A stretch of 64,000 nucleotides of DNA from an uncultured Candidatus Saccharibacteria bacterium (lineage in GTDB: Bacteria; Patescibacteriota; Doudnabacteria; UBA920; 2-02-FULL-46-11). The notes under the pieces are model-generated. The model was not told where the DNA came from, searched no databases, and saw nothing but the letters and a program-made list of their open reading frames with translations. A program made the position numbers and the translations under genes. Location: the NCBI GenBank assembly GCA_964609765.1, contig CAZSSD010000001.1, positions 45,282-109,281 on the forward strand, in the 5' to 3' direction. Positions 3 through 59,491 of the stretch are shown here, in pieces; within the stretch, counting starts at the first letter, position 1, and every line of letters begins with the position of its first letter.

Positions 3-722
3 AGCGCCGATGAATTCGAAGATTATTATGACCATTTGGTAAATTTTTGGGTCTGTTTGAACTCGTTTATTTATGAAATAAGCGATAGTGAGACGATTGA
101 TAAAGGTATACGAAATTGGCTCGGTGATTTCCGCAAAAAAACGGAAAAGCACACTGAAAAATTAAGCTCACTTTTGACTGATTTTCTAAGAACTCAATCA
201 ACCCTTAAAGAATTGGTTCATTTTATTACTAAAGATGAAGCAGTGGCCTTACTTCATGGCAAGATGGGCGATGTAGATAGATTAGAAATAACAAATAGGG
301 GGAAAGGCTGCTTTATGTTCAATGGCACTATTTATTTGTTAGACCAACTTGATGATGTTCTTAGCGAGCACAATCTATCTTTGGAAAATTTTAGCGCTAA
401 CGCCACTGAAATAAAGGGAAGCTCCGCTTTTTCTGGAGTCGTAAAGGGAAATGTAAAAGTTGTAGAAGGGTTTAACGATTTAAATAAAATAACAGCGGGC
501 GACATTCTTGTCACACAAATGACCTCACCGAAATATTTAGGAATTATGACAAAGGTTGGCGGGATAGTTACTGACCAAGGAGGCACGCTTTGCCATGCCG
601 CTATTACCGCACGAGAATTAAAAATTCCCTGCGTTATTGGCACTAAAATCGCTACGCAAGTATTAAGAGACGGAGATTTGGTGGAAGTGGATGCGGATAG
701 GGGGATAGTGAGAAAATTATGA
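3..722 (+). CDS. PEP-utilizing enzyme mobile (phosphohistidine swivel) domain protein, 5'-partial (reading frame open to window start; listed ORF starts at TTG 36)
   Basis: C-terminal motif ILVTQMTSPKYLG...VTDQGGTLCHAAITARELKIPCVIG matches the PEP-utilizers swivel domain with the catalytic His in GGxxxHAAI. The frame has no stop between nt 3 and 36. Confidence 0.7.
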   Translation, partial: SADEFEDYYDHLVNFWVCLNSFIYEISDSETIDKGIRNWLGDFRKKTEKHTEKLSSLLTDFLRTQSTLKELVHFITKDEAVALLHGKMGDVDRLEITNRGKGCFMFNGTIYLLDQLDDVLSEHNLSLENFSANATEIKGSSAFSGVVKGNVKVVEGFNDLNKITAGDILVTQMTSPKYLGIMTKVGGIVTDQGGTLCHAAITARELKIPCVIGTKIATQVLRDGDLVEVDADRGIVRKL

Positions 723-778
723 AAAGAAGATAACGGATTAACTATTCTTAAATTCTTAAGAACATTGGAATAGGTAAG

Positions 779-1882
779 ATGATAGATGATAAATTAAAGT
801 ATCAAAGAATTTTTCACGTGCCGGGTTTACGGCTTTTTATTGATGATATCTGGATGGATCATTATAAAAAGCTTGACGCAATGGTCACTTACCTAAATAA
901 CGAATATACCAGTTATTTACCTATAAATGTGATAAAGCGAACCAATAAGACCGGTCTGAAGCTTCTGAAAAGCGAAATCCAATTTAGGGGCTTCGTTAAA
1001 AACTTCGAAAATAACATGAAGCGAGTTGATGCTGCGTATAACACTATACAGCCTAAAAATATTTTAAAGAAGGCAGAAGTAGAAAATTTTTTAAAGCCTG
1101 CAGCTCGATTATTTTATTTTTACTCCAAGACCGAATTTTTCTATACCGATCTTGCCTATAAAAGATTTACCGAGACCAAAAACCCAAAACTTCAGAAAAA
1201 TTTAAAAGCAATGGGTGTCTTAAAGGAGGATGCCCGAAAACATTTAAACAAAATTTTCTTCGGCCAAAACGCTTACCTCAATGTTTTATTAAGAAAAATT
1301 TCGAGCCAGTTTAACGTGGATTTAAACAATTTATTACAATACAAGCAAAAAGAAATATTGGGTTTATTTGAAGGAAAATTGGTAAGCAGAACAGAAATTG
1401 CAAAACGAAATAAAGCCATTCTTTTGGTAGGTAAAAAAGGGACGCTATTTATAGAAACAGGTGCAAAGGCCGAAGCGGTAATAAAGAAATTTATTAAACA
1501 TAGAGAAACTGCACGGAGTTCGAGAAAATTACATGGTGTTGGCGTTAGCAAAGGGCTCGCCAGGGGCAGAGCCCGAGTAATAGTTTCGGGGTATGATAAT
1601 TTTGATCAGTTGAGAAAAATTATTTCGAGTATGAGAAAAGGCGATGTATTGGTAGCAGAAACTACATCACCGGAGCTTGCCGGTGCTTGCAAAAAGGCGG
1701 CTGCAATAGTCACTAATCAGGGCGGTCTGCTTTCCCACGCCGCCATTATCTCAAGAGAATTAAAAATTCCCTGCGTGGTTAATACTCAAAACGCTACTAG
1801 TTTAATTAAGAATGGTGATTTAGTGGAAGTTGACGGCAGTCGGGGACTCGTTACAATTATAAAAAGAAAGGTAAAGAGATAA
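779..1882 (+). CDS. PEP-utilizing enzyme mobile-domain protein (paralog 2); N-terminal ~250 aa of unknown fold
   Basis: ATG start. C-terminal VLVAETTSPELAGACKKAAAIVTNQGGLLSHAAIISRELKIPCVV is a swivel-domain signature. Confidence 0.7.
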   Translation: MIDDKLKYQRIFHVPGLRLFIDDIWMDHYKKLDAMVTYLNNEYTSYLPINVIKRTNKTGLKLLKSEIQFRGFVKNFENNMKRVDAAYNTIQPKNILKKAEVENFLKPAARLFYFYSKTEFFYTDLAYKRFTETKNPKLQKNLKAMGVLKEDARKHLNKIFFGQNAYLNVLLRKISSQFNVDLNNLLQYKQKEILGLFEGKLVSRTEIAKRNKAILLVGKKGTLFIETGAKAEAVIKKFIKHRETARSSRKLHGVGVSKGLARGRARVIVSGYDNFDQLRKIISSMRKGDVLVAETTSPELAGACKKAAAIVTNQGGLLSHAAIISRELKIPCVVNTQNATSLIKNGDLVEVDGSRGLVTIIKRKVKR

Positions 1883-1887
1883 ATATT

Positions 1888-2778
1888 ATGCCCAAACGTG
1901 AAGGTACGCCCCGAGACCCACATGAAAACAATCAAGATGAATCCGCTAAAGAGCCGTCTGATATTAGCTTATTCAGGCATAGCCTCTCTTCTTACCGAAC
2001 ATATCGAGATATCGCTGGCTCGGAAAACCCTTTGCGAGCCCTCGATCCAGAAAATCAACTCGGTCCAGATTTAACGGAAAAAGGTGCAGAATTTGCGAGA
2101 GAAGAGGCAGAAAAGTTTTTTGACGCGCTTGATCCAAAGCAAGATATTTTATTTTTTGCCTCCAGTAACGAACTGCGCGCGATCGAAACGACCAATATAT
2201 ATCGACAAGTGGCACACCAACGCGGTTTTGAAGTTATTAAGGTTGCCAACCCAAGAAGCGGACATGCCCTGGAAATAGGTAATGGCGAAATAAGAGTTGT
2301 AAAAAACTTATCGCTATACCCGAGAAATAAAAGTAATGTTGTTATTGATAGCGTTTTAGGTCCGCCCCATCAAAGACCGCCAATTAATTGGGAGGCGATT
2401 GCTGACCCTGAACTAAAGGCAAGGTACGAGCAAGCCGCAGCGATAATTGCTGCTGATGATCGCGGCTCCTTTGGCGCTAACCTGTTGGCCCACAGCGAAA
2501 AGATCAAAAAATTATTTCCAGAATTATCCTCGGCCACTGATCTGTATAGGCAATTTAAAAATATTGTTCGGTTAGTGCGTTTTGGCATTGAGAAAGCGCG
2601 AGCATCAGGACTTAAGAAAAGAGTGAAAATATTGGCGTTTGGCCATGAAAACTATTTGCTGCCTGCGCTTGAGGAATTATTCCAAGAAGAGGAGATCAGG
2701 AATTGTGAAATTATTGATTTTTCATTGAGAGAAGATAGTATTATGGCGCGCTTCAGAGGCAAAGATAGGGAAATCTAA
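1888..2778 (+). CDS. hypothetical protein (296 aa) embedded in the PEP-utilizer paralog array
   Basis: Long ORF with ATG start, tightly spaced with its neighbours. No motif recognised by eye. Confidence 0.5.
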   Translation: MPKREGTPRDPHENNQDESAKEPSDISLFRHSLSSYRTYRDIAGSENPLRALDPENQLGPDLTEKGAEFAREEAEKFFDALDPKQDILFFASSNELRAIETTNIYRQVAHQRGFEVIKVANPRSGHALEIGNGEIRVVKNLSLYPRNKSNVVIDSVLGPPHQRPPINWEAIADPELKARYEQAAAIIAADDRGSFGANLLAHSEKIKKLFPELSSATDLYRQFKNIVRLVRFGIEKARASGLKKRVKILAFGHENYLLPALEELFQEEEIRNCEIIDFSLREDSIMARFRGKDREI

Positions 2779-2793
2779 TATGGATACGTATTT

Positions 2794-4209
2794 ATGAAAA
2801 AAACAGAGTATGTGTTTTTATGGGGAAATACGCAAAGCTGCTTTACTTTTGAAGGCAATACAAATTGCTTGGTTAGATTTCCGGACAATCCTTGGAATAA
2901 AGCGCTGGAGGCGATGATAACGGTTGTTAAAGATAACAAAGCATCTTGTTATGTTTCTCAAAAAAGCATAGATAACAATATTAAGTTAGGTAGGCAGTTT
3001 TTAGATGCGAGATACGTAAAAATATTTCTCCAAAATATTCACCGTGTTACGGTCCGACATGATCGACTATTTAAGGAGTTAGACAAACTTAATTATAGAA
3101 GCCTCGGTGACGAAGAACTGCTAAATTATTTTATAAAAATATTAAATCAATGGTCAGATACCATTGGCTATTTTCGCGGTACGCAAATGGAGGGCACCCA
3201 AGTATTAGCTAATAAAATTAATAAATTAGTCGGGCCCGAAGAAGCGGCTACGCTGATTTTGCCAACAGACCTGGATCCGGTAAACCGGGAAGAAAAAGAT
3301 TGGCGAAAGCTACTCAAAAGGCCATTTAGTAAAAAAAGTATTTTTAATCATCTGCAAAAATACCCATGGCTTGTTCCTTATCACGTTGCGCTTGATCAGG
3401 CTTACCGGACTATGCAAGACCGCTACAAGCAAGGTAGGGGAGTCTTTGAGAATCGGGATATCAGAAAGGAAAAGGCCGATCTTAAAAGAAAACAGGGCGC
3501 AATATTTAAACAGTACCCTAACGCGGAAAGGCTGGTGAAGCTTATGCAGCAATTGGCTCTGGCCAGGATAAATCTGAAATCCTATTGGGGTGGCACCGAC
3601 TTTTATTTAATGCCTTTGTACGCAGAAATGGCCAGGCGCAGCGGTGAGCCGATAGCTGATATCTTTAACTATTATTTGATTGAAGAATTGAAAGCATTGT
3701 TGAATAGAAGAAAGCTGACAAGGGAAGAAAAGCAAAATCGAAAAAGATGCTTTGTATTTTTATGGAAAAAAGGGAAAATTATTATACGCTCTGGTGATGC
3801 GGCTGAAAAATTATCTAAGAAAGAGTTGGGAAGCCTAACCGAAACGGGAAACGCAAATGAGCTTAAGGGCTTTTGCGCCAATCCGGGTAAAATTACTGGC
3901 GTTGTCAGAATTTTTGAGGCCAATAATTATAAAAAAGCAAATGCTTTGCGTAAATCATTTGGAAGCGGCGAAGTATTGGTAACTCAAATGACTCAGCCAA
4001 ATATAGTTGATATTGCCAAAAAAGCGGTGGCCATTATTACTGACGAGGGCGGTATGCTTTCCCATGCCGCTATTATCTCAAGGGAGTTTGGCATTCCATG
4101 TGTGGTGGGGACCCATATTGCTACGCAAGTCTTAAAAGACGGCGATTTGGTGGAAGTTGACGCTAATAAAGGATTGGTTAAAATTTTGAAGCGGAAAAAT
4201 GCCAATTGA
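2794..4209 (+). CDS. PEP-utilizing enzyme mobile-domain protein (paralog 3)
   Basis: C-terminal VLVTQMTQPNIVDIAKKAVAIITDEGGMLSHAAIISREFGIPCVVG. Confidence 0.7.
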   Translation: MKKTEYVFLWGNTQSCFTFEGNTNCLVRFPDNPWNKALEAMITVVKDNKASCYVSQKSIDNNIKLGRQFLDARYVKIFLQNIHRVTVRHDRLFKELDKLNYRSLGDEELLNYFIKILNQWSDTIGYFRGTQMEGTQVLANKINKLVGPEEAATLILPTDLDPVNREEKDWRKLLKRPFSKKSIFNHLQKYPWLVPYHVALDQAYRTMQDRYKQGRGVFENRDIRKEKADLKRKQGAIFKQYPNAERLVKLMQQLALARINLKSYWGGTDFYLMPLYAEMARRSGEPIADIFNYYLIEELKALLNRRKLTREEKQNRKRCFVFLWKKGKIIIRSGDAAEKLSKKELGSLTETGNANELKGFCANPGKITGVVRIFEANNYKKANALRKSFGSGEVLVTQMTQPNIVDIAKKAVAIITDEGGMLSHAAIISREFGIPCVVGTHIATQVLKDGDLVEVDANKGLVKILKRKNAN

Positions 4210-5704
4210 TTTTAAAAAATGGCAGTTTGAATTTACGCAGCGCAACAGCCACCCTATTTTAATGGCTGATTTTTGGACGCGCGCCATGTATCATTACTTC
4301 CCCGAGGAAATAAAGTTACCTTTGGGGGGCCGTGATTACATATATACTGGGAAAAACAGTGGTTATGTAAAGAAAAATCAAAAGCAGGAGCTCTTAAAGA
4401 TACTTAAAAACGCCGTTTCAAGAGAGCCATATTTGCATTATGTTTATAAAAAGACACTGGCTCGGGTGGCGCAATTCGAAAAAGTTGCCGATGATATTTC
4501 TAAACAACTAAATGGCCAAATAAGCCAGAAGGACATTTTAAATTTTTGGTTAAGATTTGATGATCATTTTTGTAAGTTAATTCCGTGGTTTTTTATACCC
4601 TATTACATTACCGAAGAAAATTTTTTAGTTGATAAAATCAAACAAAGGCTGGAAAACTACAAAAAAGAGGTTGAGGAAATAACAGATTTTAACAACGCCT
4701 TGGCCATACTCGTTCAGCCCAGAATAAAAATGTATTTTCAGCAAGAGCAATATGACTTTTATAAATTGGTATCATATGCTGAAAAGTATAAAAATTTTGA
4801 AAAAGACAGAAAATTTACTGAACTAGCCAATAAGTATTTAGTTAAATATGGCTGGACCAGTACGTATCTAGTTCTGCCCTTGGTGCCACTATCACTAAAA
4901 GTGTTAATTAAACGAGTTCACGCCGCTCTAAAAAATAAATTTACGCGCCAGTATTTACTGCAAAGACAAACCGCGGTTAAAAACAAAAGAGTGGCAGCGA
5001 AATTGTTAAAATTATTGGCGCGCGATAAAGGGCTCCTAAAAAACATCAACTGGGCGCAAAAATATGCTTGGCTACTCACAGCCAGCGTAGAACGATCCCT
5101 TATCGCCACTTTTAAGCTGCAGAATTTTTACAGATTGATCAGCCTAGCCGCCGGCATTAAATATGCCGATTGGATTCATCTAACGTCTGTCGAAATTAAA
5201 CAGGCTCTGGCCGGAAGCCTAAAGATTTCCATGCAGGAAATTGCTAAAAGAAAAAGCGGATATTTTTATATTTTTGAAAATGGCAAGCCAAGCTTGTACA
5301 CTGGCGCTAAGGCCAGAGCGCTAACTAAGCAACTTGAACGTGCTACTGCGGCATTGCCAACAAAAACAGATCAAATAGTCGGCCAACCGGCCTCCCCGGG
5401 CCAGGTTACTGGCAGGGTCAGGATTTGCCGATCAGCCGCCGAGGCGGCCAAATTGGGGCCCGGTGAGATATTGGTGGCTGTTATGACGACTCCGGACTAT
5501 GTACCGGCCATGAAACAGGCTGCGGCTATTGTAACAGACGAGGGCGGCCTTTTATCCCACGCCGCCATTGTATCTAGAGAACTAGGCAAGCCTTGTATAG
5601 TTGGGACAAAAATAGCAACTAGGTTGCTAAAATATGGCGATATGGTGGAAGTTGATGCCGGGAGCGGTATCGTAAAATTATTGGGTCATACCCTAAAACG
5701 TTAG
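4199..5704 (+). CDS. PEP-utilizing enzyme mobile-domain protein (paralog 4)
   Basis: C-terminal ILVAVMTTPDYVPAMKQAAAIVTDEGGLLSHAAIVSRELGKPCIVG. Overlaps the previous gene by 11 nt, suggesting translational coupling. Confidence 0.7.
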   Translation: MPIDFKKWQFEFTQRNSHPILMADFWTRAMYHYFPEEIKLPLGGRDYIYTGKNSGYVKKNQKQELLKILKNAVSREPYLHYVYKKTLARVAQFEKVADDISKQLNGQISQKDILNFWLRFDDHFCKLIPWFFIPYYITEENFLVDKIKQRLENYKKEVEEITDFNNALAILVQPRIKMYFQQEQYDFYKLVSYAEKYKNFEKDRKFTELANKYLVKYGWTSTYLVLPLVPLSLKVLIKRVHAALKNKFTRQYLLQRQTAVKNKRVAAKLLKLLARDKGLLKNINWAQKYAWLLTASVERSLIATFKLQNFYRLISLAAGIKYADWIHLTSVEIKQALAGSLKISMQEIAKRKSGYFYIFENGKPSLYTGAKARALTKQLERATAALPTKTDQIVGQPASPGQVTGRVRICRSAAEAAKLGPGEILVAVMTTPDYVPAMKQAAAIVTDEGGLLSHAAIVSRELGKPCIVGTKIATRLLKYGDMVEVDAGSGIVKLLGHTLKR

Positions 5705-5727: not shown

Positions 5728-6798
5728 ATGCTTGTGACAATTTTAGCTTTCTTTTTAGTTTTATTAGTGCTGGTAATCGTCCATGAATGGGGGCATTTTT
5801 ATGCCGCCAAAAAGACCGGCATGGTTGTGGAAGAATTTGGCTTTGGTTTTCCGCCGCGAGCGGCTTCTATTAAGCACAAGGGCACGCGCTATTCGTTTAA
5901 CTGGCTGCCTTTGGGCGGATTTGTAAAAATTCAGGGTGAGAATGGCGATGACGATCGCACAGGATCTTTTAGCACAAAATCAATTCCAAAAAGGTTTATC
6001 GTGCTTGCTGCCGGCTGTATTATGAATTTGGTTTTGGCCTGGGTGCTATTAAGCATTTCTTTGGCCGCCGGCACGCCGCAGCCAATCGGTGAGGTTAATA
6101 AGGATGCGATAAGGGAAAACACCAGAGTAATCGTGGGTTTGGTAGGCGCCGGCTCACCAGCCGAAGCGGCCGGATTTAAATCTGGTGATGTGGTTTTGAA
6201 AATAAATAATATGCCTGTTTCTTCTTTCCAAGTTTTTCAGGAGCAGACCCGTGCCCATGCTGGTAAAAATGTAGAATATACGGTGCAGCGAGATGGCGAA
6301 ACTAAAACCTTAAATGCTGTCCCGCGTGAAAATCCACCGGCCGGGCAAGGCATGATAGGCGTGCAGCTATCCGAATGGGCAGAGGTGTCTTACCCCTGGT
6401 ATTCCTCGGCTTGGAAAGGTTTAGTTCTCACTTGGGATTTTTTGAAAATGACTTTGGACGGTTTTGGCCAACTTATTGGTCAATTATTCGGCGGACCAAA
6501 AGTGGCCGGTGAAGTGGCTGGACCAATTGGCATTGCCGTACTTACGGGGAAGTTTGCCAAGATGGGTATTGTCGCGTTGCTGCAATTTACAGCACTGCTT
6601 AGTATCAACCTCGCCATTATTAACGCTTTGCCGATCCCGGCTTTAGACGGTGGCAGAATTTTGTTCCTGTTGGTTGAGGGTATACGCGGCAAAAAGGTGC
6701 GGGCTAAGGTTGAGCAGTGGTCGCATGCCATTGGCTTTGCCCTGCTTTTGGCCTTGATGGTGGTGGTAACGATCAAAGATATACGCAATTTATTTTAA
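5728..6798 (+). CDS. rseP: RseP-like site-2 protease (M50 zinc metalloprotease with PDZ domain)
   Basis: HEWGH zinc motif in the first TM helix, a central PDZ-like segment, and a C-terminal LDGG motif. Confidence 0.85.
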   Translation: MLVTILAFFLVLLVLVIVHEWGHFYAAKKTGMVVEEFGFGFPPRAASIKHKGTRYSFNWLPLGGFVKIQGENGDDDRTGSFSTKSIPKRFIVLAAGCIMNLVLAWVLLSISLAAGTPQPIGEVNKDAIRENTRVIVGLVGAGSPAEAAGFKSGDVVLKINNMPVSSFQVFQEQTRAHAGKNVEYTVQRDGETKTLNAVPRENPPAGQGMIGVQLSEWAEVSYPWYSSAWKGLVLTWDFLKMTLDGFGQLIGQLFGGPKVAGEVAGPIGIAVLTGKFAKMGIVALLQFTALLSINLAIINALPIPALDGGRILFLLVEGIRGKKVRAKVEQWSHAIGFALLLALMVVVTIKDIRNLF

Positions 6799-6860: not shown

Positions 6861-6883
6861 AAAGCCGCCTAAGGGGCGGCTTT
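6861..6883 (+). terminator. hairpin AAAGCCGCC-TAAGG-GGCGGCTTT after rseP
   Basis: Perfect 9-bp GC-rich stem flanked by A/T runs. The trailing T-tract is short. Confidence 0.5.
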
Positions 6884-6889
6884 AAGATG

Positions 6890-7654
6890 TGTGGATGACA
6901 CGACAACTGTTTTGGGTGTAGGATTTATTTATCAGCGCGAAGTTAGCGCTAAAGGACCGGGCCCGATAACGGGCTTGGAGGTAGGCACGAGTGCCAACGC
7001 TTAGGGTGTCCTGCCGCGAGTCTTCCGGCAGGCCAAGCGGCGACCGCGTGCCGAAGGTGTGAGAGCGGGGGAGCATGGCGCTAAACCGCCAAAGAAGTTT
7101 CCCCGGCAGCCAGTCTGGCCCTCCGGGCGGATTAGACACCCGCCAGCAGTCGGGGGTACACCAGCCACACCCGCCTGGACCTTAGCCCAGCTATTCTGGT
7201 GTTTGCACCAACCAAGGGCTTGCGTCTGCCTTGGCACCAGAAGAGAACCGTGCAGGCCGCCATCCCGCCGCAGGGGCTTTGACAAATACTGCGTAGCGGC
7301 TGCGCTGGAGAAGGTCCGAAGTGCTCAAGCAGTTGTTTTATATAAATGGCGGCTGACCACCCCACGGACAGATGCACGCATCTGATCCGCGAGGTAGGTC
7401 GCCGCCACCGGCTTGCCGCCAAATTCTGGGTTAGGTATTTTCCTCCCCGGGGAGACGCCGACATTCAGGGTTCGCGCAAGGGGCACCAGGAATCCCGCCG
7501 AGCGCACTTGCTTGGTCCTGGCGCTGGCAGCAAGTCGGGTCGTATTTCGAAGCAGGGCTAAGGAGGAAGGCTCGATGTTGTGAGCGAGCGGTGTGTTCGC
7601 GTGTCCAAGGTGCCCGGCGGGCATCACAAACTACGCGGACCCGTATACTCCTTA
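6890..7654 (+). ncRNA. GC-rich structured ncRNA locus, candidate RNase P RNA (rnpB)-like, possibly two RNAs
   Basis: About 770 nt that is much more GC-rich than its flanks. It has only overlapping junk ORFs on both strands and is bounded by terminators. It contains CTAAAGGACCGGGCCCG (resembles RNase P CR-I GGAAAGUCCGGGCUCC), GAGTGCCAACGCTTAGGG (resembles the P15 GUGCCAGGUAACGCCUGGG) and GGTGTGAGAGCGGG (resembles GGUAAGAGCG). Confidence 0.35.
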
Positions 7655-7691
7655 GCCCTGCTTCTATCGGAAGCAGGGCGATTTCTTTTTT
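7655..7691 (+). terminator. rho-independent terminator (CCCTGCTTC-tatcg-GAAGCAGGG plus T-tract)
   Basis: 9-bp stem followed by CGATTTCTTTTTTT on the + strand. Confidence 0.65.
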
Positions 7692-7820: not shown

Positions 7821-9299
7821 ATGACAATGAAAAAAAACCTTACAAGCCGGGCGGACGATTATGCCGAGTGGTACCAGGATGTTATCGAAGCAGCGGATTT
7901 AGCCGAACACTCTCCGGTGCGCGGTTTTATGGTTATTAAGCCGTACGGTTACGGTATCTGGGAAAATATCCAAAAAGTTTTAGACGCAAAAATTAAGGAA
8001 ACGGGCCACGTAAATGCTTACTTCCCCTTGCTTATCCCAAAGTCTTTTATCGCGCGCGAGGCCGAGCATGTGGAGGGTTTTGCCAAGGAGAGCGCGGTGG
8101 TTACTCATCACCGTTTAGTCTCGGATCCAAAAGAAGGTTTGGTGGTAGATCCGGAAGCTAAACTTGATGAAGAATTAATCATCCGCCCGACTTCGGAGAC
8201 TATAATTTATTCAATGTTTAGCCGCTGGATTCAGTCTTGGCGGGATCTGCCGATGCTCATAAACCAGTGGGCGAACATAGTGCGTTGGGAAATGCGCACA
8301 AGGCTGTTCCTGCGCACATCTGAATTTTTATGGCAGGAGGGGCATACCGCCCACACTACTGAAGAAGAGGCGGAAGAGGAGGCGCTGAAAATGCTCGGCG
8401 TATATAAAGATTTGGCCGAAAATTATTTGGCCATTCCCGTAGTGTCTGGCCGCAAGAGCGAATCGGAAAAGTTTGCCGGAGCGCTCCGAACCTACACGAT
8501 CGAGGCTATGATGCAAGATGGCAAAGCGCTGCAAGCCGGCACTTCGCACAACCTGGGCCAGAATTTCGCCAAGCCGTTTGAAGTTAAATTTTTGGATAAA
8601 GATAACGAGCAAAAATATGTTTGGCAGACAAGCTGGGGGGTATCCACGCGTTTAATCGGGGCTTTAGTCATGGCCCATGGCGACAATTTGGGTCTGGTAT
8701 TACCGCCAAAGATGGCGCCTATAAAAATTGTGATTGTGCCGATTTGGAAGGATGACAGTGAAAAAGAAAAAGTGCTGGAACATGCTCAAGAATTGCGTGG
8801 ACGCCTGCAAGTGCTTGACGGTAACGTAAAAGTAGACGATCGAGATTATCTTACCCCCGGGGCTAAGTTTAATGAATGGGAAAAGAAGGGCGTGCCGATA
8901 AGGGTAGAAATAGGGCCAAAAGATATTGCCAATCATGAGGTGGTTATGGTGCGCCGCGATAAGGGCGAAAAAAAAGTAATTTCTATGCACAATTTAGTTG
9001 AGATTTTGGAAGATGAGTTGGATATTATGCAATCGGACTTGTTGAACCGCGCGCGTGAATTTATGGCTGAACATAGTTACGAAGTGGATGATTACGAAAA
9101 GTTTAAGTCCATTATTGAAGAAAAACCCGGATTTGTTTATGCCCATTGGTGCGGATCTGATCAATGTGAAAGAGAGATTAGCGATGAGACTAAAGCCACC
9201 ATCCGCTGCATCCCGCTTAGCCAAGCATCTGAACAAGGCAAGTGTATAAAGTGCGGCGCCGCGTCGGGCCAAAGAGTGGTGTTTGCAAAGGCTTACTAG
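7821..9299 (+). CDS. proS: prolyl-tRNA synthetase, archaeal/eukaryotic-type (class II, C-terminal Zn-binding domain)
   Basis: N-terminal ...EWYQDVIEAADLAEHSPVRGFMVIKPYGYGIWENIQ... and a C-terminal CIKCG Zn motif. About 490 aa, typical of the short ProRS form. Confidence 0.9.
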   Translation: MTMKKNLTSRADDYAEWYQDVIEAADLAEHSPVRGFMVIKPYGYGIWENIQKVLDAKIKETGHVNAYFPLLIPKSFIAREAEHVEGFAKESAVVTHHRLVSDPKEGLVVDPEAKLDEELIIRPTSETIIYSMFSRWIQSWRDLPMLINQWANIVRWEMRTRLFLRTSEFLWQEGHTAHTTEEEAEEEALKMLGVYKDLAENYLAIPVVSGRKSESEKFAGALRTYTIEAMMQDGKALQAGTSHNLGQNFAKPFEVKFLDKDNEQKYVWQTSWGVSTRLIGALVMAHGDNLGLVLPPKMAPIKIVIVPIWKDDSEKEKVLEHAQELRGRLQVLDGNVKVDDRDYLTPGAKFNEWEKKGVPIRVEIGPKDIANHEVVMVRRDKGEKKVISMHNLVEILEDELDIMQSDLLNRAREFMAEHSYEVDDYEKFKSIIEEKPGFVYAHWCGSDQCEREISDETKATIRCIPLSQASEQGKCIKCGAASGQRVVFAKAY

Positions 9300-11748: not shown

Positions 11749-13645
11749 CGGTATTGATAATTTAAGCACGCCTGACCTCAACCGGATTTCTATCGAGGAG
11801 GTTTTATTAGATACTGATGCCGACGTGGTACACAGCTCTCTCGAATCCGGCCATAGAAATACCACCAATATCAAAATTTTCGCGGCCCTGGTGTTGGTTG
11901 GATTGCTGGTTATCAGCGGACAACTTATTAATTTGCAAATAGGCCGTGGCGACGATTACAGCGCCGCCGCTGAAAATAATCGCGTGCGCACCATACGCAA
12001 ATTCGCGCCGCGCGGTTTAATTACGGATCGGTACGGCGAGCCCCTGGTTCGCAATATACCAAGTTTTGAATTAGTGGCCATACCGATTGATTTGCCCAAA
12101 GATAATGAAGCGCGCACAGCCCTTTTTAGCGCCGCCGGTCAGGTTATTGGCATAAGCGCTCAAGAAATAGCAGAAAAACTCAATAGTGCCAGCGCCAATT
12201 CTATTGAACCTTTTTTAATTAAGCAATCATTAAGCCAGGATGAGGCTCTTAAACTTGAGGGCTTGGTCCAAAACACGCCGGGCTTCCAAATACAGAGCAC
12301 GCCGATCCGGGAGTATTTAAACGGCCCCGCCTTTTCCAATATTCTCGGTTTTACCGGCAAATTAACGCAGGAGGAATGGGAACAAAAAAGAGCGCAAAAA
12401 TATTTTTTTAATGATATTCTGGGCAAAACCGGCGTGGAGTTGGTATTTGAAGATACTTTGCGCGGCCGCCATGGCGGTACCGAAGTGGAGGTGGACGCCA
12501 GCGGTAAAATTGTCAAAAAAATAAGAGAAGTTGAGCCGCAGACCGGGCATGATGTAACGCTTACCGTAGACGCCGGCTTGCAGCTTTTTATTTATAATGC
12601 TTTGCAGGAAATGCTGGCCGCCCGCCCCGCTTCTTTGGGTGCGGCGGCGGTGGCCTCCAATCCGAAAACGGGCGAGATATTGGCCTTGGTTACCCTGCCC
12701 GGTTTTGATAATAATCTATTCGCCAAAGGTATTAAAACCAGGGAGTATAACGCCCTGGTTTCGAATAAAGCCAAACCAATGTTAAACCGGCCGCTGGCCG
12801 GCTTGTACCCGCCGGGCTCTACCATCAAGCCTTTAATCGCGGCCGCGGCCTTGCAAGAAGGGGTTATTACGCGCCAAACCAAAATAAACGATGAAGGCGT
12901 GATTACGGTCGGCAGTTTTAATTTTTACGGCTGGAAGCGGGAAGGCTTAGGCGTGATGGATGTTATTTCGGCGATTGCCTGGTCATCCGATCCTTTTTTC
13001 TATGTGGTCGGCGGCGGCCATGAAGCCTATGGGATCAGCGGTTTAGGCGTAGATCGCTTAGTGGCCTACTTGCAGAAATTTAATTTTGGGCAGCCCAGCG
13101 GCATTTCATTGCCTGGCGAAGAATCGGGTTTTGTCCCAAGCCAAGCTTGGAAGAAACAAAGGTTTGCCGGCACAGACGAACAGAACTGGTACTTGGGAAA
13201 CACTTATCATCTAAGTATTGGCCAGGGTTATTTTCTGGTTACGCCCCTTCAATTGAATATGTATATTGCGGCCTTGGCCAATGACGGTAAAATGATGAAG
13301 CCGGTTATTGCCGCTACTGAATCGCCGCAACTGCTTAGAGAGGTGGGGATAGAGCAAAAAAATTTGGAGATCGCCCAAGCGGGCATGCGTGAAGTCATTT
13401 TGTCTGGCACGAGCCAGAGCTTAAAGAGCCTGCCGGTTTCGGCGGCGGGCAAAACGGGCACGGCCCAATTTGATGCGAGCGATCTTTCGCGCACTCACGC
13501 TTGGTACACGGCCTACGCACCTTACGAAGATCCGGAAATAGCCATCACCGTGATTGTCGAGGGCGGCGGTGAAGGCAGCTCGACTTCAGTGCCCATTGTG
13601 CGCGAAGCCTTGCGTTGGTATGCGGAACATAGATTGGCAGACTAG
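11735..13645 (+). CDS. mrdA: penicillin-binding protein 2 (elongasome transpeptidase)
   Basis: N-terminal TM segment, dimerisation domain, and transpeptidase motifs STIKP (SxxK), SSD and KTGTA. Follows mreD. Confidence 0.85.
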   Translation: MFEPDGIDNLSTPDLNRISIEEVLLDTDADVVHSSLESGHRNTTNIKIFAALVLVGLLVISGQLINLQIGRGDDYSAAAENNRVRTIRKFAPRGLITDRYGEPLVRNIPSFELVAIPIDLPKDNEARTALFSAAGQVIGISAQEIAEKLNSASANSIEPFLIKQSLSQDEALKLEGLVQNTPGFQIQSTPIREYLNGPAFSNILGFTGKLTQEEWEQKRAQKYFFNDILGKTGVELVFEDTLRGRHGGTEVEVDASGKIVKKIREVEPQTGHDVTLTVDAGLQLFIYNALQEMLAARPASLGAAAVASNPKTGEILALVTLPGFDNNLFAKGIKTREYNALVSNKAKPMLNRPLAGLYPPGSTIKPLIAAAALQEGVITRQTKINDEGVITVGSFNFYGWKREGLGVMDVISAIAWSSDPFFYVVGGGHEAYGISGLGVDRLVAYLQKFNFGQPSGISLPGEESGFVPSQAWKKQRFAGTDEQNWYLGNTYHLSIGQGYFLVTPLQLNMYIAALANDGKMMKPVIAATESPQLLREVGIEQKNLEIAQAGMREVILSGTSQSLKSLPVSAAGKTGTAQFDASDLSRTHAWYTAYAPYEDPEIAITVIVEGGGEGSSTSVPIVREALRWYAEHRLAD

Positions 13646-13708
13646 CTCTTGACACATGGGTTTTCTGCCCCTATCATTACTCCAGCATAATTTTTGGGAG
13701 GGCTAAAC

Positions 13709-14170
13709 ATGATGACAAAAAAATATTATTTGACCGCCGAAGGACTTTCTAAACTCAAAGAAGAGTTGGATTATCTGATCAACGAGCGGCGCCAGGAAAT
13801 TATAGAGCGCATTCAGGAGGCGGTTGCCCACGGCGACCTGTCCGAGAATGCGGACTATGCGCAGGCTAAGGAAGAGCAAGCCTTTGTGGAAGGCCGCATT
13901 CAAGAGCTCGAAGAAATGATTCGCAACGCGGAAATCATTACCCATACCGAGGGCGATCAGGTTAGCATAGGTTCAACCGTAAAAGTGAGTATTGATGGCA
14001 AGGAGTACGAATATACAATTGTCGGTTCCAATGAAGCCAATCCGCGCGAAGGCAAAATTAGTAACGAGTCTTTGGTCGGCCGGGCTATTTTGGGCCGCAA
14101 AAAAGGCGACAAGGTGGAAGTGGCCACACCGGCCGGAGTAAAGGTGTGTGAGATTATAGAAAACTCCTAG
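13709..14170 (+). CDS. greA: transcription elongation factor GreA
   Basis: MMTKKYYLTAEGLSKLKEELDYL...DLSENADY... A GGGAGGG RBS lies upstream of ATG 13709. Confidence 0.9.
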   Translation: MMTKKYYLTAEGLSKLKEELDYLINERRQEIIERIQEAVAHGDLSENADYAQAKEEQAFVEGRIQELEEMIRNAEIITHTEGDQVSIGSTVKVSIDGKEYEYTIVGSNEANPREGKISNESLVGRAILGRKKGDKVEVATPAGVKVCEIIENS

Positions 14171-14204
14171 CCAATATCCCGTGGTCTGTGGTTCGTACAA
14201 AAAC

Positions 14205-14223
14205 AGCCTTAACGGCTTTTTTG
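14205..14223 (+). terminator. greA terminator (AGCCTTAACGGCT plus TTTTTT)
   Basis: Short hairpin followed by a T-run. Confidence 0.6.
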
Positions 14224-14230
14224 TTATTGT

Positions 14231-14259
14231 TTGACATCTTAAAATTTTTCAAGTTTAAT
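14231..14259 (+). promoter_or_regulatory. sigma70-like promoter TTGACA-17 nt-TTTAAT
   Basis: Near-consensus -35 box with 17-nt spacing. Sits upstream of the high-GC ORF. Confidence 0.5.
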
Positions 14260-14417
14260 AACAAGTAAACTCAAGAAGGATTTATGTATTGTTTCAGTCG
14301 GCTGGGCCGCCGACCTGCTGTCGAAAGGCAGACTTACATCCCAACGGGTGGCGATAAGCTGCCCGAGCGAACACCAAACTCGCTCCAAGGGCGTGAGGCC
14401 CTGGAAGGGAGAACAAC

Positions 14418-14903
14418 ATGAGCAGACGAAAGAGCTGGAGAACGAACGGGATCGGCAGCGACCTCTATGCCGTGGTCGAAGCGATCGTCAACCTGAACGC
14501 CTACCTTGGCGGGATCTGGGTCGGCGTGCCGACGCATGGTCTCAGGGTTGAAGAATTCAGAAGCGGCAACCCTTCCGTACTTCGCGTTCGGTTTCCACGC
14601 TGGACCGAGCAAGAGTGGATCGAGCTCGTGCTCTCGGAAGACCAGGAGAATCCCGAACACGCCCGCTGTATCCAAAGGGGCCGGGTGCGCTGCCCTGCGT
14701 TCGGAAAGAGAGTTGGTGAGAAGCAATGGCTGGGATTCGCGTTCGATAACCTCGCCAACTGGTATGGGGGGGCCAGGTTTTTCGACTTCATCAATGCAGA
14801 CAGCGAGGCTCTCGTGCGTCAAGCTTTTGAGGGCCGGGCAAGTGTGCTCGAGCATTGCCACAACATTGCTCTGACAACTCTGGCAGAACTCGAGGGGTTC
14901 TAG
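14418..14903 (+). CDS. hypothetical protein (161 aa) in a high-GC island; probable horizontally acquired ORFan
   Basis: Strong GC3 bias (about 75% G/C at third codon positions) in this frame only. Has a GGAAGGGAG RBS, an upstream promoter and a downstream terminator. The minus-strand ORF 14334..14861 lacks these signals. Confidence 0.5.
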   Translation: MSRRKSWRTNGIGSDLYAVVEAIVNLNAYLGGIWVGVPTHGLRVEEFRSGNPSVLRVRFPRWTEQEWIELVLSEDQENPEHARCIQRGRVRCPAFGKRVGEKQWLGFAFDNLANWYGGARFFDFINADSEALVRQAFEGRASVLEHCHNIALTTLAELEGF

Positions 14904-14934
14904 CAGTAAGTGGCCCGCTGACTGAAACGTACGG

Positions 14935-14968
14935 CACCCGCAGGAAGTCCCTGCGGGTGCGCGTGTTT
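14935..14968 (+). terminator. rho-independent terminator (CACCCGCAGG-aagtc-CCTGCGGGTG plus GCGTGTTTTA)
   Basis: 10-bp GC stem followed by a T-tract. A TATAAT -10 box for lysS follows at 14973. Confidence 0.6.
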
Positions 14969-14985
14969 TATGTTATAATTATTTT

Positions 14986-16467
14986 ATGTCTACACGTCAA
15001 CAGAGCTTGCGGGAGGACAGGTTAAAAAAGATTGAGGATTTAAAAGCGCGCGGGGTTGACCCTTATCCCGTTGATGTTTCGGATGACCGCGAGCCGATTG
15101 GTGATGTATTGTCCGAATTTAAAGATGTGGCCGGTGAACCTGGGTCGACCTTGAACAAACTTGCTACCATCGCCGGCCGGGTGCGATCGATGAGATTGCA
15201 CGGGAAAGTTGCATTTGTTGATTTGGAGGACCAATCAGGCCGCATGCAGGCTATGTTTCGCGCCGATGATGTTGGCGAAGAACAATTTAATGTTTTTGTT
15301 AATGATGTCGATGAGGGTGATTTTATTGAAGCAAGCGGCAGTTTGGGTATCAGCAAAACCGGCGAAAAGTCTATTTTCGCCAACGGTTGGCGGATGCTCA
15401 CAAAATCGATTCGGCCGATCCCGTCTGAATACTACGGCTTAAAGGACGTCGAACAGAGGTTGCGTAAGCGCTATCTTGATTTAATCGCCAACCCGGAAAC
15501 GCGTGAAATGTTCAGGCAAAAATCGAAATTTTGGCAAAGCCTGCGCCAATTTTTGCTGGACAACGGCTTCATGGAAGTGGAGTTGCCGGTTTTGGAATCA
15601 ACGCCCGGCGGCGCCGAAGCCGAGCCTTTCGTTACCCATCATAACGCTCTTGATCGTGATTTTTATCTGCGTATCTCCTTAGAGCTGCCGCTTAAACGGC
15701 TTTTGGTGGGCGGTTATGAAAAAGTTTTTGAAATCGGCCGCATCTTTCGTAACGAAGGTATTGATGCCGAACATCTGCAGGATTATACACAAATGGAGTT
15801 TTATTGGGCTTACGCCGATTATCAGGATTTGATGGTCTTTTTGCGCAAGATGTACCAATATGTAATAGAAAATACTTTCGGTACCCTCAAAACCACTTAC
15901 GACGGTAAGGAAATCGATTGGTCAGGCGAATGGCCGGTGGTCGATTTTTACGATTTATTTGAAAAATATGCCGGCGCTTCACCGGATTTAAGCGAGGCGG
16001 AATTGCGCACGGTGGCCGAGAAAAATGGCATTGATGTCAGCGAAATTTACGGTAAGGGTAAGGTTATCGACGCAATCTATAAACGCAAAGTGCGGCCAAA
16101 TCTAGTCCAACCGCAATTTATGATTAGGCCGCCGGTGGAAATGGAACCGCTGGCCAAGCGCGATCCCGAATTTCCCAACCGCGTGCAGCGTTTGCAGATC
16201 ATGGCCGGCGGTACCGAGCTGGGCAAGGGTTTTTCCGAGCTTAATGACCCTCTTGACCAGCGTGCGCGTTTTGAAGAGCAAATGAAGCTGCGCGAAGTTG
16301 GCGATAAAGAAGCGCAGATGCTGGATGAGGATTACGTGGAAGCTTTGGAGTATGGCATGCCGCCAGCGGCAGGTTTTGGCATATCCGAACGACTATTTGC
16401 GGTGTTGGTTGATAAACCAATCAGAGAGATAGTTTTCTCTCCGCCAATGAAAGACCCCGGGAACTAG
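14986..16467 (+). CDS. lysS: lysyl-tRNA synthetase, class II
   Basis: N-terminal OB-fold anticodon-binding region and class II motifs (FRNEG..., GGxELGxGFSELNDP). Confidence 0.9.
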   Translation: MSTRQQSLREDRLKKIEDLKARGVDPYPVDVSDDREPIGDVLSEFKDVAGEPGSTLNKLATIAGRVRSMRLHGKVAFVDLEDQSGRMQAMFRADDVGEEQFNVFVNDVDEGDFIEASGSLGISKTGEKSIFANGWRMLTKSIRPIPSEYYGLKDVEQRLRKRYLDLIANPETREMFRQKSKFWQSLRQFLLDNGFMEVELPVLESTPGGAEAEPFVTHHNALDRDFYLRISLELPLKRLLVGGYEKVFEIGRIFRNEGIDAEHLQDYTQMEFYWAYADYQDLMVFLRKMYQYVIENTFGTLKTTYDGKEIDWSGEWPVVDFYDLFEKYAGASPDLSEAELRTVAEKNGIDVSEIYGKGKVIDAIYKRKVRPNLVQPQFMIRPPVEMEPLAKRDPEFPNRVQRLQIMAGGTELGKGFSELNDPLDQRARFEEQMKLREVGDKEAQMLDEDYVEALEYGMPPAAGFGISERLFAVLVDKPIREIVFSPPMKDPGN

Positions 16468-25979: not shown

Positions 25980-26291
25980 ATGTTCGCGATTATCCAAACC
26001 GGTGGCAAGCAATACACTGTTTCACCTGAACAGACCGTCAAAATAGAAAAGCTCAAGGCTGAAAAAGGGGAAACCGTTACGTTCGATAAGGTTCTTTTGG
26101 TGGCTGATGACGATAGTGTTAAAGTGGGGAAGCCGTTTGTAGCCGGGGCGAGTGTTTCCGGGCAGGTTTTGACCCAAGCCAAGGATAAAAAAATCAGGGT
26201 TTTTAAGTATAAGGCCAAATCTAAGTATCGCCGTACCGCTGGGCACAGGCAGGCTTATACGGCCGTAAAAATCGGCGAGATTAAGGTCTAG
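25980..26291 (+). CDS. rplU: 50S ribosomal protein L21
   Basis: [14 protein letters not shown]... Confidence 0.9.
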
Positions 26292-26315
26292 TTCCGAAAA
26301 AAAGCACTTAATTTC

Positions 26316-26344
26316 AACCACCAAGAGCCGGTGGTTGTTTTAGT
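26316..26344 (+). terminator. rplU terminator (CAACCACC-aagagcc-GGTGGTTG plus TTTTAG)
   Basis: 8-bp stem followed by a T-run. Confidence 0.6.
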
Positions 26345-26345
26345 A

Positions 26346-26373
26346 TTGACTATTTCTTTTAATGTTGTAAAAT
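26346..26373 (+). promoter_or_regulatory. sigma70-like promoter TTGACT-16 nt-TAAAAT driving the downstream ncRNA/tRNA region
   Basis: Near-consensus boxes immediately after the rplU terminator. Confidence 0.5.
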
Positions 26374-26382
26374 ATGATACAC

Positions 26383-26905
26383 GGACATTAAGTTCTGGTT
26401 TGGGTAGCCTTAACGTCTAAGTCCAACTAGCGGACTCGCACGGAGGATCGGCCGATCTACCATGGCCTCCGTATGGAAAGCTTGAGGACCCTTAGGTGTT
26501 AACCCACTCCCAACTAACGTCAGCCAGGCCTGCTCACCTCGTTCCGATCGCAAGGTGCGTGGTAAGCGGGTTCTGCAGTTAGGGCGGAGCGCGGAGTACG
26601 AGGCGCGAAACCGGGGAAGAACCAAATCTTGGGCGGGAAACAAACCAAACTCGTCGCTGTGGGAGGTTTGCGATCAAACAAGAAATGGTTCAACGTTGGC
26701 GTAGCCCACAGCCGGTAACCAGTCTTTTGGGGGGACTGGGGATGGCGGCAGGCGTTGGTAAAGCGAGCAGTGCTGGAACGGAGAGATGCTGAATGGGTTC
26801 GGGAGTTGTTCGCCACTAGTGTGCGGCAACTTACCTTGAGCGGCTCGGTCGATCCGGTAGGGCATTGTAAGGTTTGCGAATTGCTTGCGTGGAGCCCAAA
26901 CCAGA
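26383..26905 (+). ncRNA. unclassified GC-rich structured ncRNA candidate (~520 nt)
   Basis: Promoter-proximal, GC-rich, and carries only overlapping junk ORFs on both strands. Many local helices. Weak CR-IV/CR-V-like strings (GGTGCGTGGTAAGCGGG; CACAGCCGGTAACC). Confidence 0.3.
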
Positions 26906-26909
26906 TATT

Positions 26910-27015
26910 GGGGCTGGACCTCGGGTGTGAGGCACGGGGGAATTCATCCTCCCCCCGTGGCGCTGTTCGCGGTCTTTGCTCGCGACAGGGTCGGGTTCGA
27001 TTCCCGTCAGCTCCA
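26910..27015 (+). ncRNA. atypical 106-nt tRNA-like element with a tmRNA/tRNA-Ala-type acceptor stem
   Basis: 5' GGGGCTG and 3' CAGCTCC-A acceptor strands with a G3:U70 pair. T-arm CGGG-TTCGATT-CCCG. 4-nt D-loop (CCTCG-GGTG-TGAGG). An 8-bp hairpin CACGGGGG/CCCCCGTG with an 11-nt loop containing UUCAU. A long extra arm (CTGTTCGCG...CGCGACAG). Confidence 0.4.
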
Positions 27016-27017
27016 TT

Positions 27018-27110
27018 GGAGAGGTAGCCAAGCGGCCAAAGGCGCCGGGGTGTTACTCCGGTGATCGGGTCAATACCTGGTCTGCGTGGGTTCGAATCCC
27101 ACCCTCTCCA
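27018..27110 (+). tRNA. class II (long variable arm) tRNA, Tyr/Ser-like D-arm; the anticodon loop reads gUGUUAc (apparent GUU)
   Basis: Acceptor GGAGAGG/CCTCTCC plus discriminator A. D-arm GCC-AAGCGGCCAAA-GGC. Anticodon stem CCGGG/TCCGG. 24-nt variable arm. T-arm GTGGG-TTCGAAT-CCCAC. No encoded CCA. Confidence 0.75.
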
Positions 27111-27285
27111 TGAAGTACTGGGCAGTGGTCTCCCTTCCGTTGCCTAGAGTTGGAGGAGTAATTCCTTTTCGGAGCGCAGTGCCTCGCGTGGTGACGGGTG
27201 AAACCCGGGACTCCCAAGCCTAGAGCTTGGGAATAATACCGGGGAGTAAGTCCCGATCCAGCGAGCCTGCCCCTCCGGGCACAAA

Positions 27286-58979: not shown

Positions 58980-59468
58980 ATGTCAGAGCCACTGTTCAGC
59001 CAAAACGGCCGGCGCATTACGTTCTACTGCGGTCTGGGCAGTACGAACTGCTACGCCAGGCAGGGTAGCAATGAGGAGCTGATCATCACGGACGGCGATG
59101 TGTTGACCGCACTTGGGCTGGTCTTCGCAGCCCGCGCGGATCTCGCCGATGTCTTCGAGCAGGCGCATTGGACCCGGAGCTACGCGCAGGAGACCGCCGA
59201 CATACTCGGCGCGGTCAGGTTCCAGGGCACCTCGTCCTCTCAGCCCAGGGTTAAGATAGATGTCGACGTGTCGGAATGCCGTTTGGAGTTCTATGGCGAG
59301 TTTCTGAAGGTAACCCTGCCGACTCACTGGTTCCTCAACAGGCTGCTTGACTTCCTTGCAAGGCACCCGCAACTTCCCGAGATCAGTGCGGCCCGGTTGA
59401 ACGCAAGCGCTTTGCGCGAGGGCTGGGCGGAGTTTGCCCGCACCCGATCGTCGCCTAGCGGCCGCTGA
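58980..59468 (+). CDS. hypothetical protein (162 aa) in a second high-GC island; probable horizontally acquired ORFan
   Basis: GGAGG RBS 5 nt before the ATG. High GC3 in this frame only. Strong terminator downstream. Both flanks are AT-rich. Confidence 0.5.
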   Translation: MSEPLFSQNGRRITFYCGLGSTNCYARQGSNEELIITDGDVLTALGLVFAARADLADVFEQAHWTRSYAQETADILGAVRFQGTSSSQPRVKIDVDVSECRLEFYGEFLKVTLPTHWFLNRLLDFLARHPQLPEISAARLNASALREGWAEFARTRSSPSGR

Positions 59469-59491
59469 ACAGCCGAGTTATGCCTCTTAAG

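Follow-up and report, generated by a model that had tools for sequence, protein, structure and literature searches.

When an open reading frame (ORF) is clearly richer in G and C than the genes around it, is it a recent arrival from a high-GC donor, or is its composition a lasting property of its own? The question arises in a 64,000-nucleotide stretch of contig CAZSSD010000001.1, from an uncultured member of the Patescibacteria (Candidate Phyla Radiation, CPR). That whole stretch is called the window here, and coordinates are positions within it unless a related locus is named. At 14231-14968, on the + strand, an ORF of 161 amino acids (14418..14903) lies between greA and lysS with a promoter-like site, leader, ribosome-binding site and terminator of its own, and a first-pass annotation took it to be a recent acquisition from a high-GC donor, plausibly an actinobacterium. 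No such donor was found. The explanation that we favour, with somewhat better than even confidence, is that we are dealing with a real accessory gene cassette, complete in itself, that occupies a variable greA-lysS slot in this CPR genome and whose expression would be gated.

The ORF was present as annotated and its composition is unusual, if less extreme than first stated. Its GC content is 58.2%, compared with 48.5% for the window, and the three codon positions have 61, 44 and 69% G+C. Third-position GC (GC3) was thus not the approximately 75% given at first, but of the window's 50 genes only one exceeds it (mean 0.52, sd 0.075). The sequence also behaves as a coding sequence. It shows three-base periodicity (chi-square p=3.7e-5), which is absent from a nearby ORF-free GC-rich island at 6880-7680 (p=0.76), and its codon position 1 is G-rich (0.39), as it is in greA and lysS. 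Similarity to a homologous cassette in L150, a related Patescibacteria contig described below, peaks in the annotated frame: the Smith-Waterman score for that pair of frames was 61, the best of 18, and the next best among the 17 others was 46. The predicted product looks cytoplasmic or soluble and lacks the kind of hydrophobic segment that a membrane peptide would have.

These data bear on the possibility that the island is a structured non-coding RNA, or another RNA-level element, whose 161-codon frame arose by accident from its high GC content. By itself, the length of the frame is not significant: in 8.9% of mononucleotide shuffles of the island a frame of 161 codons or more was open, and an antisense frame of 175 codons is open opposite the ORF as well. 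The whole cassette transcript folds better than its shuffles (z=-3.9 for the + strand, z=-3.3 for the - strand), the leader and the two arms of a predicted fold-back are the best-conserved parts of the cassette, and ORF-free, GC-rich, strongly structured islands exist in the same genome. No Rfam family matched, but Rfam covers described families only. However, the folding signal is located in the leader, the arms and the terminator; the body of the ORF has z=+0.14, that is, no excess structure, and 16 control segments taken at spaced positions in the window, most of them inside genes, had a mean z of -0.6. Together with the periodicity and the frame-specific similarity, an intact ORF preceded by a Shine-Dalgarno (SD) sequence and ATG at the same place in both copies makes the purely RNA-level explanation very unlikely. 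The first-pass annotation had named a structured RNA without a conserved ORF as the result that would overturn it; what we found instead was a conserved ORF, preceded nonetheless by a conserved structured leader. We read the antisense frame, which has no SD-like sequence upstream as judged by eye, as the usual shadow of a GC-rich gene, and a consensus scan found no promoter-like site on the minus strand of 14231-14968.

Two other GC-rich parts of the window are observations in their own right. The ORF-free island spans approximately 800 nt of intergenic DNA (6880-7690; 62% GC) between rseP-like (5728..6798) and proS-like (7821..9299) genes, both named by sequence reading. It has no ORF longer than 110 codons and, as noted, no periodicity, folds with z=-3.8 and -4.9 on its two strands, closes with a terminator-like hairpin, whose arms at 7549-7565 and 7648-7664 precede a T-run, and had no Rfam match, making it a candidate for a large structured non-coding RNA. 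The gene with the highest GC3 in the window (0.77) is a second GC-rich strict ORFan of 162 amino acids (58980..59468, within 58706-59530). It lies between genes read as trxB-like and trxA-like, is equipped with a promoter-like site, an SD (AGAGGAGG) and a terminator of its own, returned only itself from a search of 5.8 billion protein clusters, and shows no similarity to the ORF at 14418.

Evidence on the origin of the cassette comes from its homologue. It was found by synteny, in the same greA-lysS slot of L150, and a further locus, L151, matches L150. The L150 ORF encodes 173 amino acids, and the two proteins share 26-32% identity; BLASTP aligned them at 26% identity over 88 amino acids (E=1e-4 as a single comparison), and the Smith-Waterman score of 61 exceeded all of 3000 shuffles (mean 29.7, sd 4.8, maximum 58). 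The flanking genes are far better conserved, with GreA 76% and LysS 77% identical in amino acids (greA 69% and lysS 71% in nucleotides), and therefore the ORF protein evolves much faster than its neighbours. With L150 as its one detectable cassette homologue, the protein appears from these comparisons to be both lineage-restricted and fast-evolving. At third codon positions the flanking genes are only 37-44% identical between the two loci, meaning that synonymous sites are saturated. Despite this distance the L150 ORF is equally GC3-rich (0.68, compared with approximately 0.53 for its host genes), and the GC excess must therefore be maintained or recurrent rather than the footprint of a recent transfer. 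High GC3, common to both copies, is a standing property of the cassette.

This leaves little room for the idea that the ORF was recently transferred from a cellular donor of high GC, for example an actinobacterial host on which this organism might live as an epibiont. In favour of such a transfer, the ORF is an outlier in the window in both GC and GC3, and the slot is empty in most relatives. Against it, no homologue was present in any cellular genome or metagenome protein set that was searched, and Actinobacteria are densely sampled. The sole relative is found in another member of the Patescibacteria, at the same locus and with the same GC3, across saturated synonymous divergence. A GC3 of 0.69 is also modest, being well below typical actinobacterial values. 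Finally, the best match to LysS among 185,579 species-representative genomes (60% identity) came from Doudnabacteria-type Patescibacteria metagenome-assembled genomes (MAGs), which by this measure are the nearest named relatives of the window genome, and we found no evidence of an actinobacterial host. We therefore regard this explanation as largely refuted and most improbable.

Conservation between the two cassettes extends well beyond the ORF. In L150 a promoter TTGACA-17-TATAAT aligns with the promoter-like site of the window. The most striking conserved feature is a 25-nt block in the leader, GTTTCAGTCGGCTGGGCCGCCGAC (14291..14314 in the window), which has the form GTTTCA(A)GTCGGCTGGGCCGCCGAC and is identical in the window and in L150/L151 except for the insertion of a single A. 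Because it is invariant between loci whose flanking genes are saturated, this block must be strongly constrained. The start context ACATGAGCA is also common to both cassettes, as are the AGTAA that follows the stop codon and the 3' blocks GGCCC and CTGAAAC; the L150 terminator differs in sequence but stands at the same position and is followed by the lysS promoter. A short upstream ORF (uORF) spans the leader in each case, 45 codons in the window (14284..14421) and 39 codons in L150 (1387..1506 of that locus), and both end in an ATGA that overlaps the main start. Their aligned AUGs are in different frames and the encoded peptides are not conserved, and we give little weight to this overlap, which is weak evidence. 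Separately, L150 (740-1310) and L151 carry an element of the IS200/IS605 type inserted between greA and the cassette, with a Y1 transposase split into ORFs of 92 and 57 amino acids (a match to PF01797) and CCCCGG-type hairpins at both ends.

The leader RNA (14266..14417, about 150 nt as first annotated) is, on this comparison, the most constrained part of the cassette. Its folding z was -2.6 to -2.7. The RNAalifold consensus of the window and L150 leaders contains 26 base pairs in five predicted helices, with every position paired in both sequences (100%) and eight pairs showing compensatory changes; in a control in which the 3' partners were moved by 1-3 columns, 37-57% were paired with zero to two double changes, and only 4 of 500 shuffles reached the observed pairing and covariation. 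Helix 1 pairs 14275-81 with 14288-95. Helix 2 (14297-302 with 14309-14) forms the invariant hairpin GUCGGC-UGGGCC-GCCGAC (14297-14314), and the conserved block contains both this hairpin and the 5' arm of the fold-back. Helix 3 would pair an anti-SD sequence with the SD itself (14340-42 with 14407-09) as CCC:GGG, and in L150 as CUC with GAG, one compensatory change. Helix 4 joins 14368-70 to 14380-82, and helix 5 (14384-92 with 14398-405), in which five of eight pairs are compensatory, lies directly 5' of the SD. The SD-like sequence, GGAAGGGAG at 14403..14411, ends 6 nt before the ATG and would be partly paired in helices 3 and 5.

A second predicted structure would connect the two ends of the messenger RNA. 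The 3' arm GUGGCCCGCUGACUGAAAC (14910..14928) is complementary to 14291-14310 in the leader, giving 19 predicted base pairs, including two G.U pairs, and one bulge. This fold-back is present in the minimum free energy (MFE) structures of both the window and the L150 transcripts (z about -3.9 for each), and it competes with helices 1 and 2. We consider it suggestive only. The same two repeats could instead bound a non-autonomous transposable element, either a miniature inverted-repeat transposable element (MITE) or the remnant of an insertion sequence (IS), of which the ORF would be the cargo. As DNA the inverted repeat around the ORF measures 15 nt at 87% complementarity, or 19 bp if G.U pairs are counted, so that the element would be about 640 bp long, and an IS200-family element does lie in the same slot of L150. 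Because of its G.U pairs, however, the helix is better as + strand RNA than as a DNA repeat. The cassette is single-copy in the 64-kb window and, among all the loci fetched, confined to the greA-lysS slot; sequence reading and Pfam revealed no target-site duplication, integrase or transposase at the window copy, and neither Y1_Tnp nor any other transposase domain is present in the ORF. The promoter and the terminator, moreover, are outside the repeats and yet within the conserved unit, and the flanking repeat was not found in the other cassettes of the clade. We give a MITE-like origin only a slim chance.

The cassette stands in a part of the genome that varies among relatives. In genomes related to that of the window, greA followed by lysS is the rule, and we surveyed 112 related loci with this order. 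The median gap was 126 bp: 61 of the 112 loci had a gap under 150 bp, 23 had 150-350 bp, 21 had 350-1000 bp and seven had 1000 bp or more. Longer gaps contained unrelated genes, namely membrane-transporter-like, pilin-like and proline-biosynthesis-like ORFs (by sequence reading) as well as ORFans, and in distant relatives they were not GC-rich. Closer relatives, with GreA 73-83% identical, were obtained from a protein search and contig look-ups; a scan of JGI metagenomes with GreA gave at best 58% identity. Two of these loci (L156 and L168) were uninformative, as their contigs end too soon 3' of greA. The slot is empty in L149, L152, L153/L154, L157, L158 and L159, and as read in L149, L152, L153 and L157 the greA terminator is followed directly by the lysS promoter, TGnTA(T/C)AAT. 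It is filled by a gene of the MBL fold in L145 and L155, by an MBL-fold gene and a GC-rich ORFan of 98 amino acids in L144, by an unrelated GC-rich ORFan of 193 amino acids in L146-L148, and by an IS200-type Y1 transposase pseudogene followed by the 173-amino acid cassette ORF in L150/L151. The prevalence of short gaps, including those of the near relatives L149, L153/L154, L158 and L159, supports the earlier proposal that the window cassette is an accessory insertion.

The ORFan units of L144 (5210-5640) and L146 (1760-2520) are related neither to each other nor to the window ORF, but both come with a promoter-like sequence, SD and terminator, and they have 59-60% GC in hosts of 49-54%. The 98-amino acid product in L144 is membrane-protein-like, and its promoter is TTGACA-17-TATAAT. 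The extended -10 motif of lysS, TGnTATAAT (with TACAAT in L149), is kept in L144, L145, L146, L149, L150, L152, L153 and L157, in filled and empty slots alike. It ends 6-8 nt before the ATG in the window, in L146 and in L150, with no SD, implying that the lysS messenger RNA of this clade is leaderless or nearly so. The slot probably tolerates cargo because the units of the window, L144, L146 and L150 end in their own terminators directly before the lysS -10. The gap between greA and lysS is a variable, insertion-tolerant slot that has the greA terminator on one side and the compact promoter of lysS on the other.

Such turnover invites a different reading, in which each of these cassettes arrived on its own, and fairly recently, out of a mobile pool of GC-rich genes, with an unsampled source of approximately 60% GC such as a phage, a plasmid or a host, and landed repeatedly in the greA-lysS slot; the invariant leader block would then be a recognition or recombination site of the element. 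Four cassette ORFs of the clade are indeed alike in GC (54-61%) and GC3 (0.67-0.77) while their hosts have 47-54% GC. The distribution is patchy, so that L146, whose LysS is the closest to that of the window (81% over the 369 amino acids recovered), holds an unrelated ORF; an IS200-type transposase lies beside the L150 copy, and the imperfect inverted repeat flanks the window ORF. On the other hand, no donor or other copy was found among proteins, phages, plasmids, viral contigs, the rest of the window or approximately 1.2 Mb of related loci. At 26-32% identity between the ORFs, any common source must be ancient or extremely diverse. As described above, no target-site duplication, integrase or transposase accompanies the window copy, and the hairpins of the L150 IS are of the CCCCGG type, unlike the cassette motif. 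We hold the mobile-pool explanation to be unlikely, though worth keeping in view. If the cassette is instead an accessory gene of a variable slot, as we prefer, slot content would most likely turn over through recombination in the conserved flanking genes.

The limits of the cassette in the window are as follows. Its neighbourhood reads PBP2, greA, lysS, serS, and both greA (start at 13694 or 13709, end at 14170) and lysS (14986..16467) were confirmed by Pfam. The left edge of the slot is a weak terminator-like hairpin with a T-run 3' of greA (14200..14222, + strand; AAAAACAGCC-TTAAC-GGCTTTTTT), read from the sequence and not listed by the terminator scan because its stem is too short. The promoter-like site, of sigma-70 type, follows at 14231..14259, with TTGACA (14231-14236), a 17-nt spacer and TTTAAT (14254-14259). 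The -35 is perfect, but to call the site near-consensus, as the first-pass annotation did, was generous: the -10 lacks the conserved A at position 2, and for this reason the site escaped the consensus scan. The strong intrinsic terminator (14930..14969) was confirmed as a G+C-rich hairpin followed by UUUU; the terminator scan placed an 11-bp stem at 14934-14960, which the MFE fold extends to 14930-14965. Immediately beyond it, the extended -10 promoter of lysS, TGTTATAAT (14971..14979), marks the right edge and ends 6 nt upstream of the lysS ATG. The view that the island is a transcription unit of its own is thus supported. An artefact of assembly, joining foreign DNA to the contig, is favoured by the compositional contrast and by nothing else. 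Two short contigs, from independent Logan assemblies of separate runs (SRR12113420 and SRR12113384), encode exactly this protein and are 100% identical to the window across both junctions, and the island is therefore not a chimera. Cassette, terminator and lysS promoter also follow in the same order in L150/L151, which come from other samples. The probability of a misassembly, which the earlier annotation had raised against itself, is negligible, and we consider it refuted for practical purposes.

Searches with the protein and the RNA placed the cassette in no described family, in agreement with the earlier statement that the protein has no recognised motif. A word-index search of 5.8 billion protein clusters returned only the 161-amino acid protein itself, and phmmer found no true homologue among 1.84 billion representatives. 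The phmmer matches were two giant repeat proteins (4307 and 2718 amino acids) that accumulated 12 and 7 weak stretches over query residues 12-66; from their sequences we take them to be trimeric autotransporter adhesins and the matches to be a repeat artefact. Pfam, PHROGs, PADLOC and NCBIfam gave no family at E<=1 for the ORF or the antisense frame, the best match among PDB sequences had E=0.67, and phage records, plasmids and IMG/VR viral contigs gave no match to the protein. The L150 homologue likewise had no Pfam match. A hidden Markov model built from the window and L150 proteins recovered no further member among the 6798 ORFs of all loci, and the window ORF is unrelated to the 193-amino acid ORF of L146 and to the ORF of L016.

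For the RNA, a search of 13600-15400 against Rfam at E<=1 produced a lone match of 25 bits to AaHKsRNA82, over the greA terminator and the promoter (gathering score 51.4), and a scan of the whole window at gathering scores identified two tRNAs only. Among the loci fetched by then, the exact leader motif was found only in the window, L001/L002 and L150/L151, and across 519 kb of related loci a covariance model of the leader detected nothing else. Eight IMG/VR matches to an 18-mer of the leader were rejected as chance matches inside high-GC phage coding sequence.

How might such a cassette be controlled? Expression would be gated after transcription. The leader may close a multi-helix junction in which upstream CCC/CUC pairs with the GGG/GAG of the ribosome-binding site, and the invariant hairpin, or the DNA palindrome GTCGGC-N6-GCCGAC, could be the recognition site of a factor. 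Pairing of the 5' leader with the 3' untranslated region (UTR) over 19 bp could lock or stabilise the full-length messenger RNA, and the cassette terminator would insulate lysS from read-through. As to the protein, a conflict-type role, toxin-like or defence-like, is our top-ranked guess and is weakly supported, being based on rapid divergence, patchy presence, the neighbouring IS element and what may be tight translational control.

Several observations weigh against this account of a gated accessory cassette. Only two members of the family are known, so the covariation comes from a single sequence pair, whose alignment was also the source of the structure. The predicted fold-back shows no compensatory change, its 5' arm being invariant, and in L150 it retains 6 bp on the outside and 7 bp on the inside but is weakened in the middle. 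The homology of the two proteins itself is based on BLASTP, on Smith-Waterman comparison with shuffles and on synteny; phmmer does not link them, and for this reason the large searches missed the relationship. The -10 of the window lacks its critical A, and this copy may be poorly transcribed or decaying. A conflict role found no match in PADLOC, PHROGs, Pfam or NCBIfam and is not accompanied by an antisense promoter in the consensus scan. Structure prediction also came back empty-handed as to the activity of the protein: the single-sequence AlphaFold2 model had low confidence (pLDDT 42.6) and Foldseek returned no PDB match at E<=0.001, neither result being usable.

It is tempting to speculate further that the cassette is the first member to be seen of an undescribed class of post-transcriptionally gated CPR accessory genes, in which a new cis-regulatory leader RNA, through its invariant hairpin and SD-sequestering junction, would act with the fold-back to silence a fast-evolving protein, perhaps a toxic or defensive one, until a signal or processing event intervenes, but we regard this as doubtful. 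If it were true, the raised GC of the ORFan cassettes of this clade would reflect selection acting at the RNA level, not descent from a donor. Some consequences are of wider use. The GC-rich ORFan at this locus is no evidence of a recent high-GC import, a tempting inference that is corrected here. Synteny can find homologues of "strict ORFans" that are missed by searches of billions of proteins. The leader is a small, testable candidate RNA in a phylum in which almost no regulation has been studied, and a compact insertion hotspot between greA and lysS in Patescibacteria could help in the study of gene gain and loss in reduced genomes.

Three more regions of the window are recorded here. A block at 36-5704 is AT-rich (GC 36-43%, GC3 0.34-0.41) and contains five tandem genes; four of the five end in the mobile domain of PEP-utilising enzymes (PF00391), and these make up an array of paralogues that stands apart from the remainder of the window in composition. 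A stretch of approximately 60% GC at 26300-27111, with open frames of at most 98 codons, runs from an rplU-like gene (25980..26291) to a tRNA-Asn (27017-27111) whose 95 nt are unusual for a tRNA and may include an insertion; outside this tRNA the stretch had only weak Rfam matches, far below gathering scores. The most GC-rich DNA of the window lies in an ORF of 1101 amino acids with no Pfam domain (36196-39501), segments of which (37500-38500) reach 65-69% GC.

Comparison with known systems helps to place the cassette. In the survey of prokaryotic orphan genes by Vakirlis and Kupczok (Genome Res 2024; PMC11293555), orphan GC, including GC3s, tracks that of the host almost one to one, and phage-like or de novo candidates are GC-poorer. 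The window ORF is like these species-specific orphans in being short, rare, free of homologues by standard search and likely under some constraint. It differs in being approximately 10 points GC-richer and 17 points GC3-richer than its host, as opposed to the GC-poorer phage-like orphans, and three other ORFans of the clade deviate in the same way. The cassette is also unlike an integron cassette, as it has no attC core sites (RYYYAAC/GTTRRRY); the arms CTGAAAC and GTTTCAG fit the consensus only at their AAC/GTT ends, the hairpin between the arms is an ordinary terminator with a U-run, and the flanks are greA and lysS.

Elements of the IS200 type (IS200/IS605 family) are about 700 bp long, with one ORF of approximately 150 amino acids and a structured 5' end that occludes the ribosome-binding site. 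The window cassette is similar in size (about 640-750 bp) and ORF length and has a leader predicted to hide the ribosome-binding site and hairpins near both ends. Unlike IS200, its ORF has no Y1_Tnp domain (PF01797), it is single-copy, and its hairpins differ from those of the L150 IS. A moron, in the term of Hendrix and colleagues, is said to be an extra phage gene of atypical composition, with its own promoter and terminator, between conserved genes. A single small ORF of odd composition, with its own promoter-like site and terminator and present or absent among relatives, resembles this; unlike a moron, it is flanked by the housekeeping genes greA and lysS and matched no phage family or viral collection.

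For the predicted RNA, the nearest parallel is the hok messenger RNA studied by the Gerdes laboratory, in which the full-length molecule reportedly folds back by pairing of a 3' fbi element with its 5' end, and hok is translated in coupling with the overlapping mok frame. As in hok/sok, the window transcript has a predicted pairing of 5' leader and 3' UTR that encloses the ORF, a ribosome-binding site that would be sequestered and a uORF whose stop lies on the main start. The differences are a product of 161 soluble-looking amino acids rather than the hydrophobic peptide of approximately 50 amino acids encoded by hok, a uORF frame that is not conserved, no antisense promoter in the consensus scan, and no match in sequence or Rfam.

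At the level of the locus, Oliveira, Touchon, Cury and Rocha (Nat Commun, 2017) reportedly described hotspots of horizontal gene transfer flanked by core genes. The greA-lysS interval is like them in holding different accessory content across relatives, including an IS element. It is unlike them in its tiny size, with one to three genes, in involving no integrase or tRNA, and in that several of its occupants are complete promoter-ORF-terminator units of raised GC. An accessory ORFan cassette in a hotspot flanked by core genes is therefore of a kind already known, and what is new here is the candidate leader RNA.

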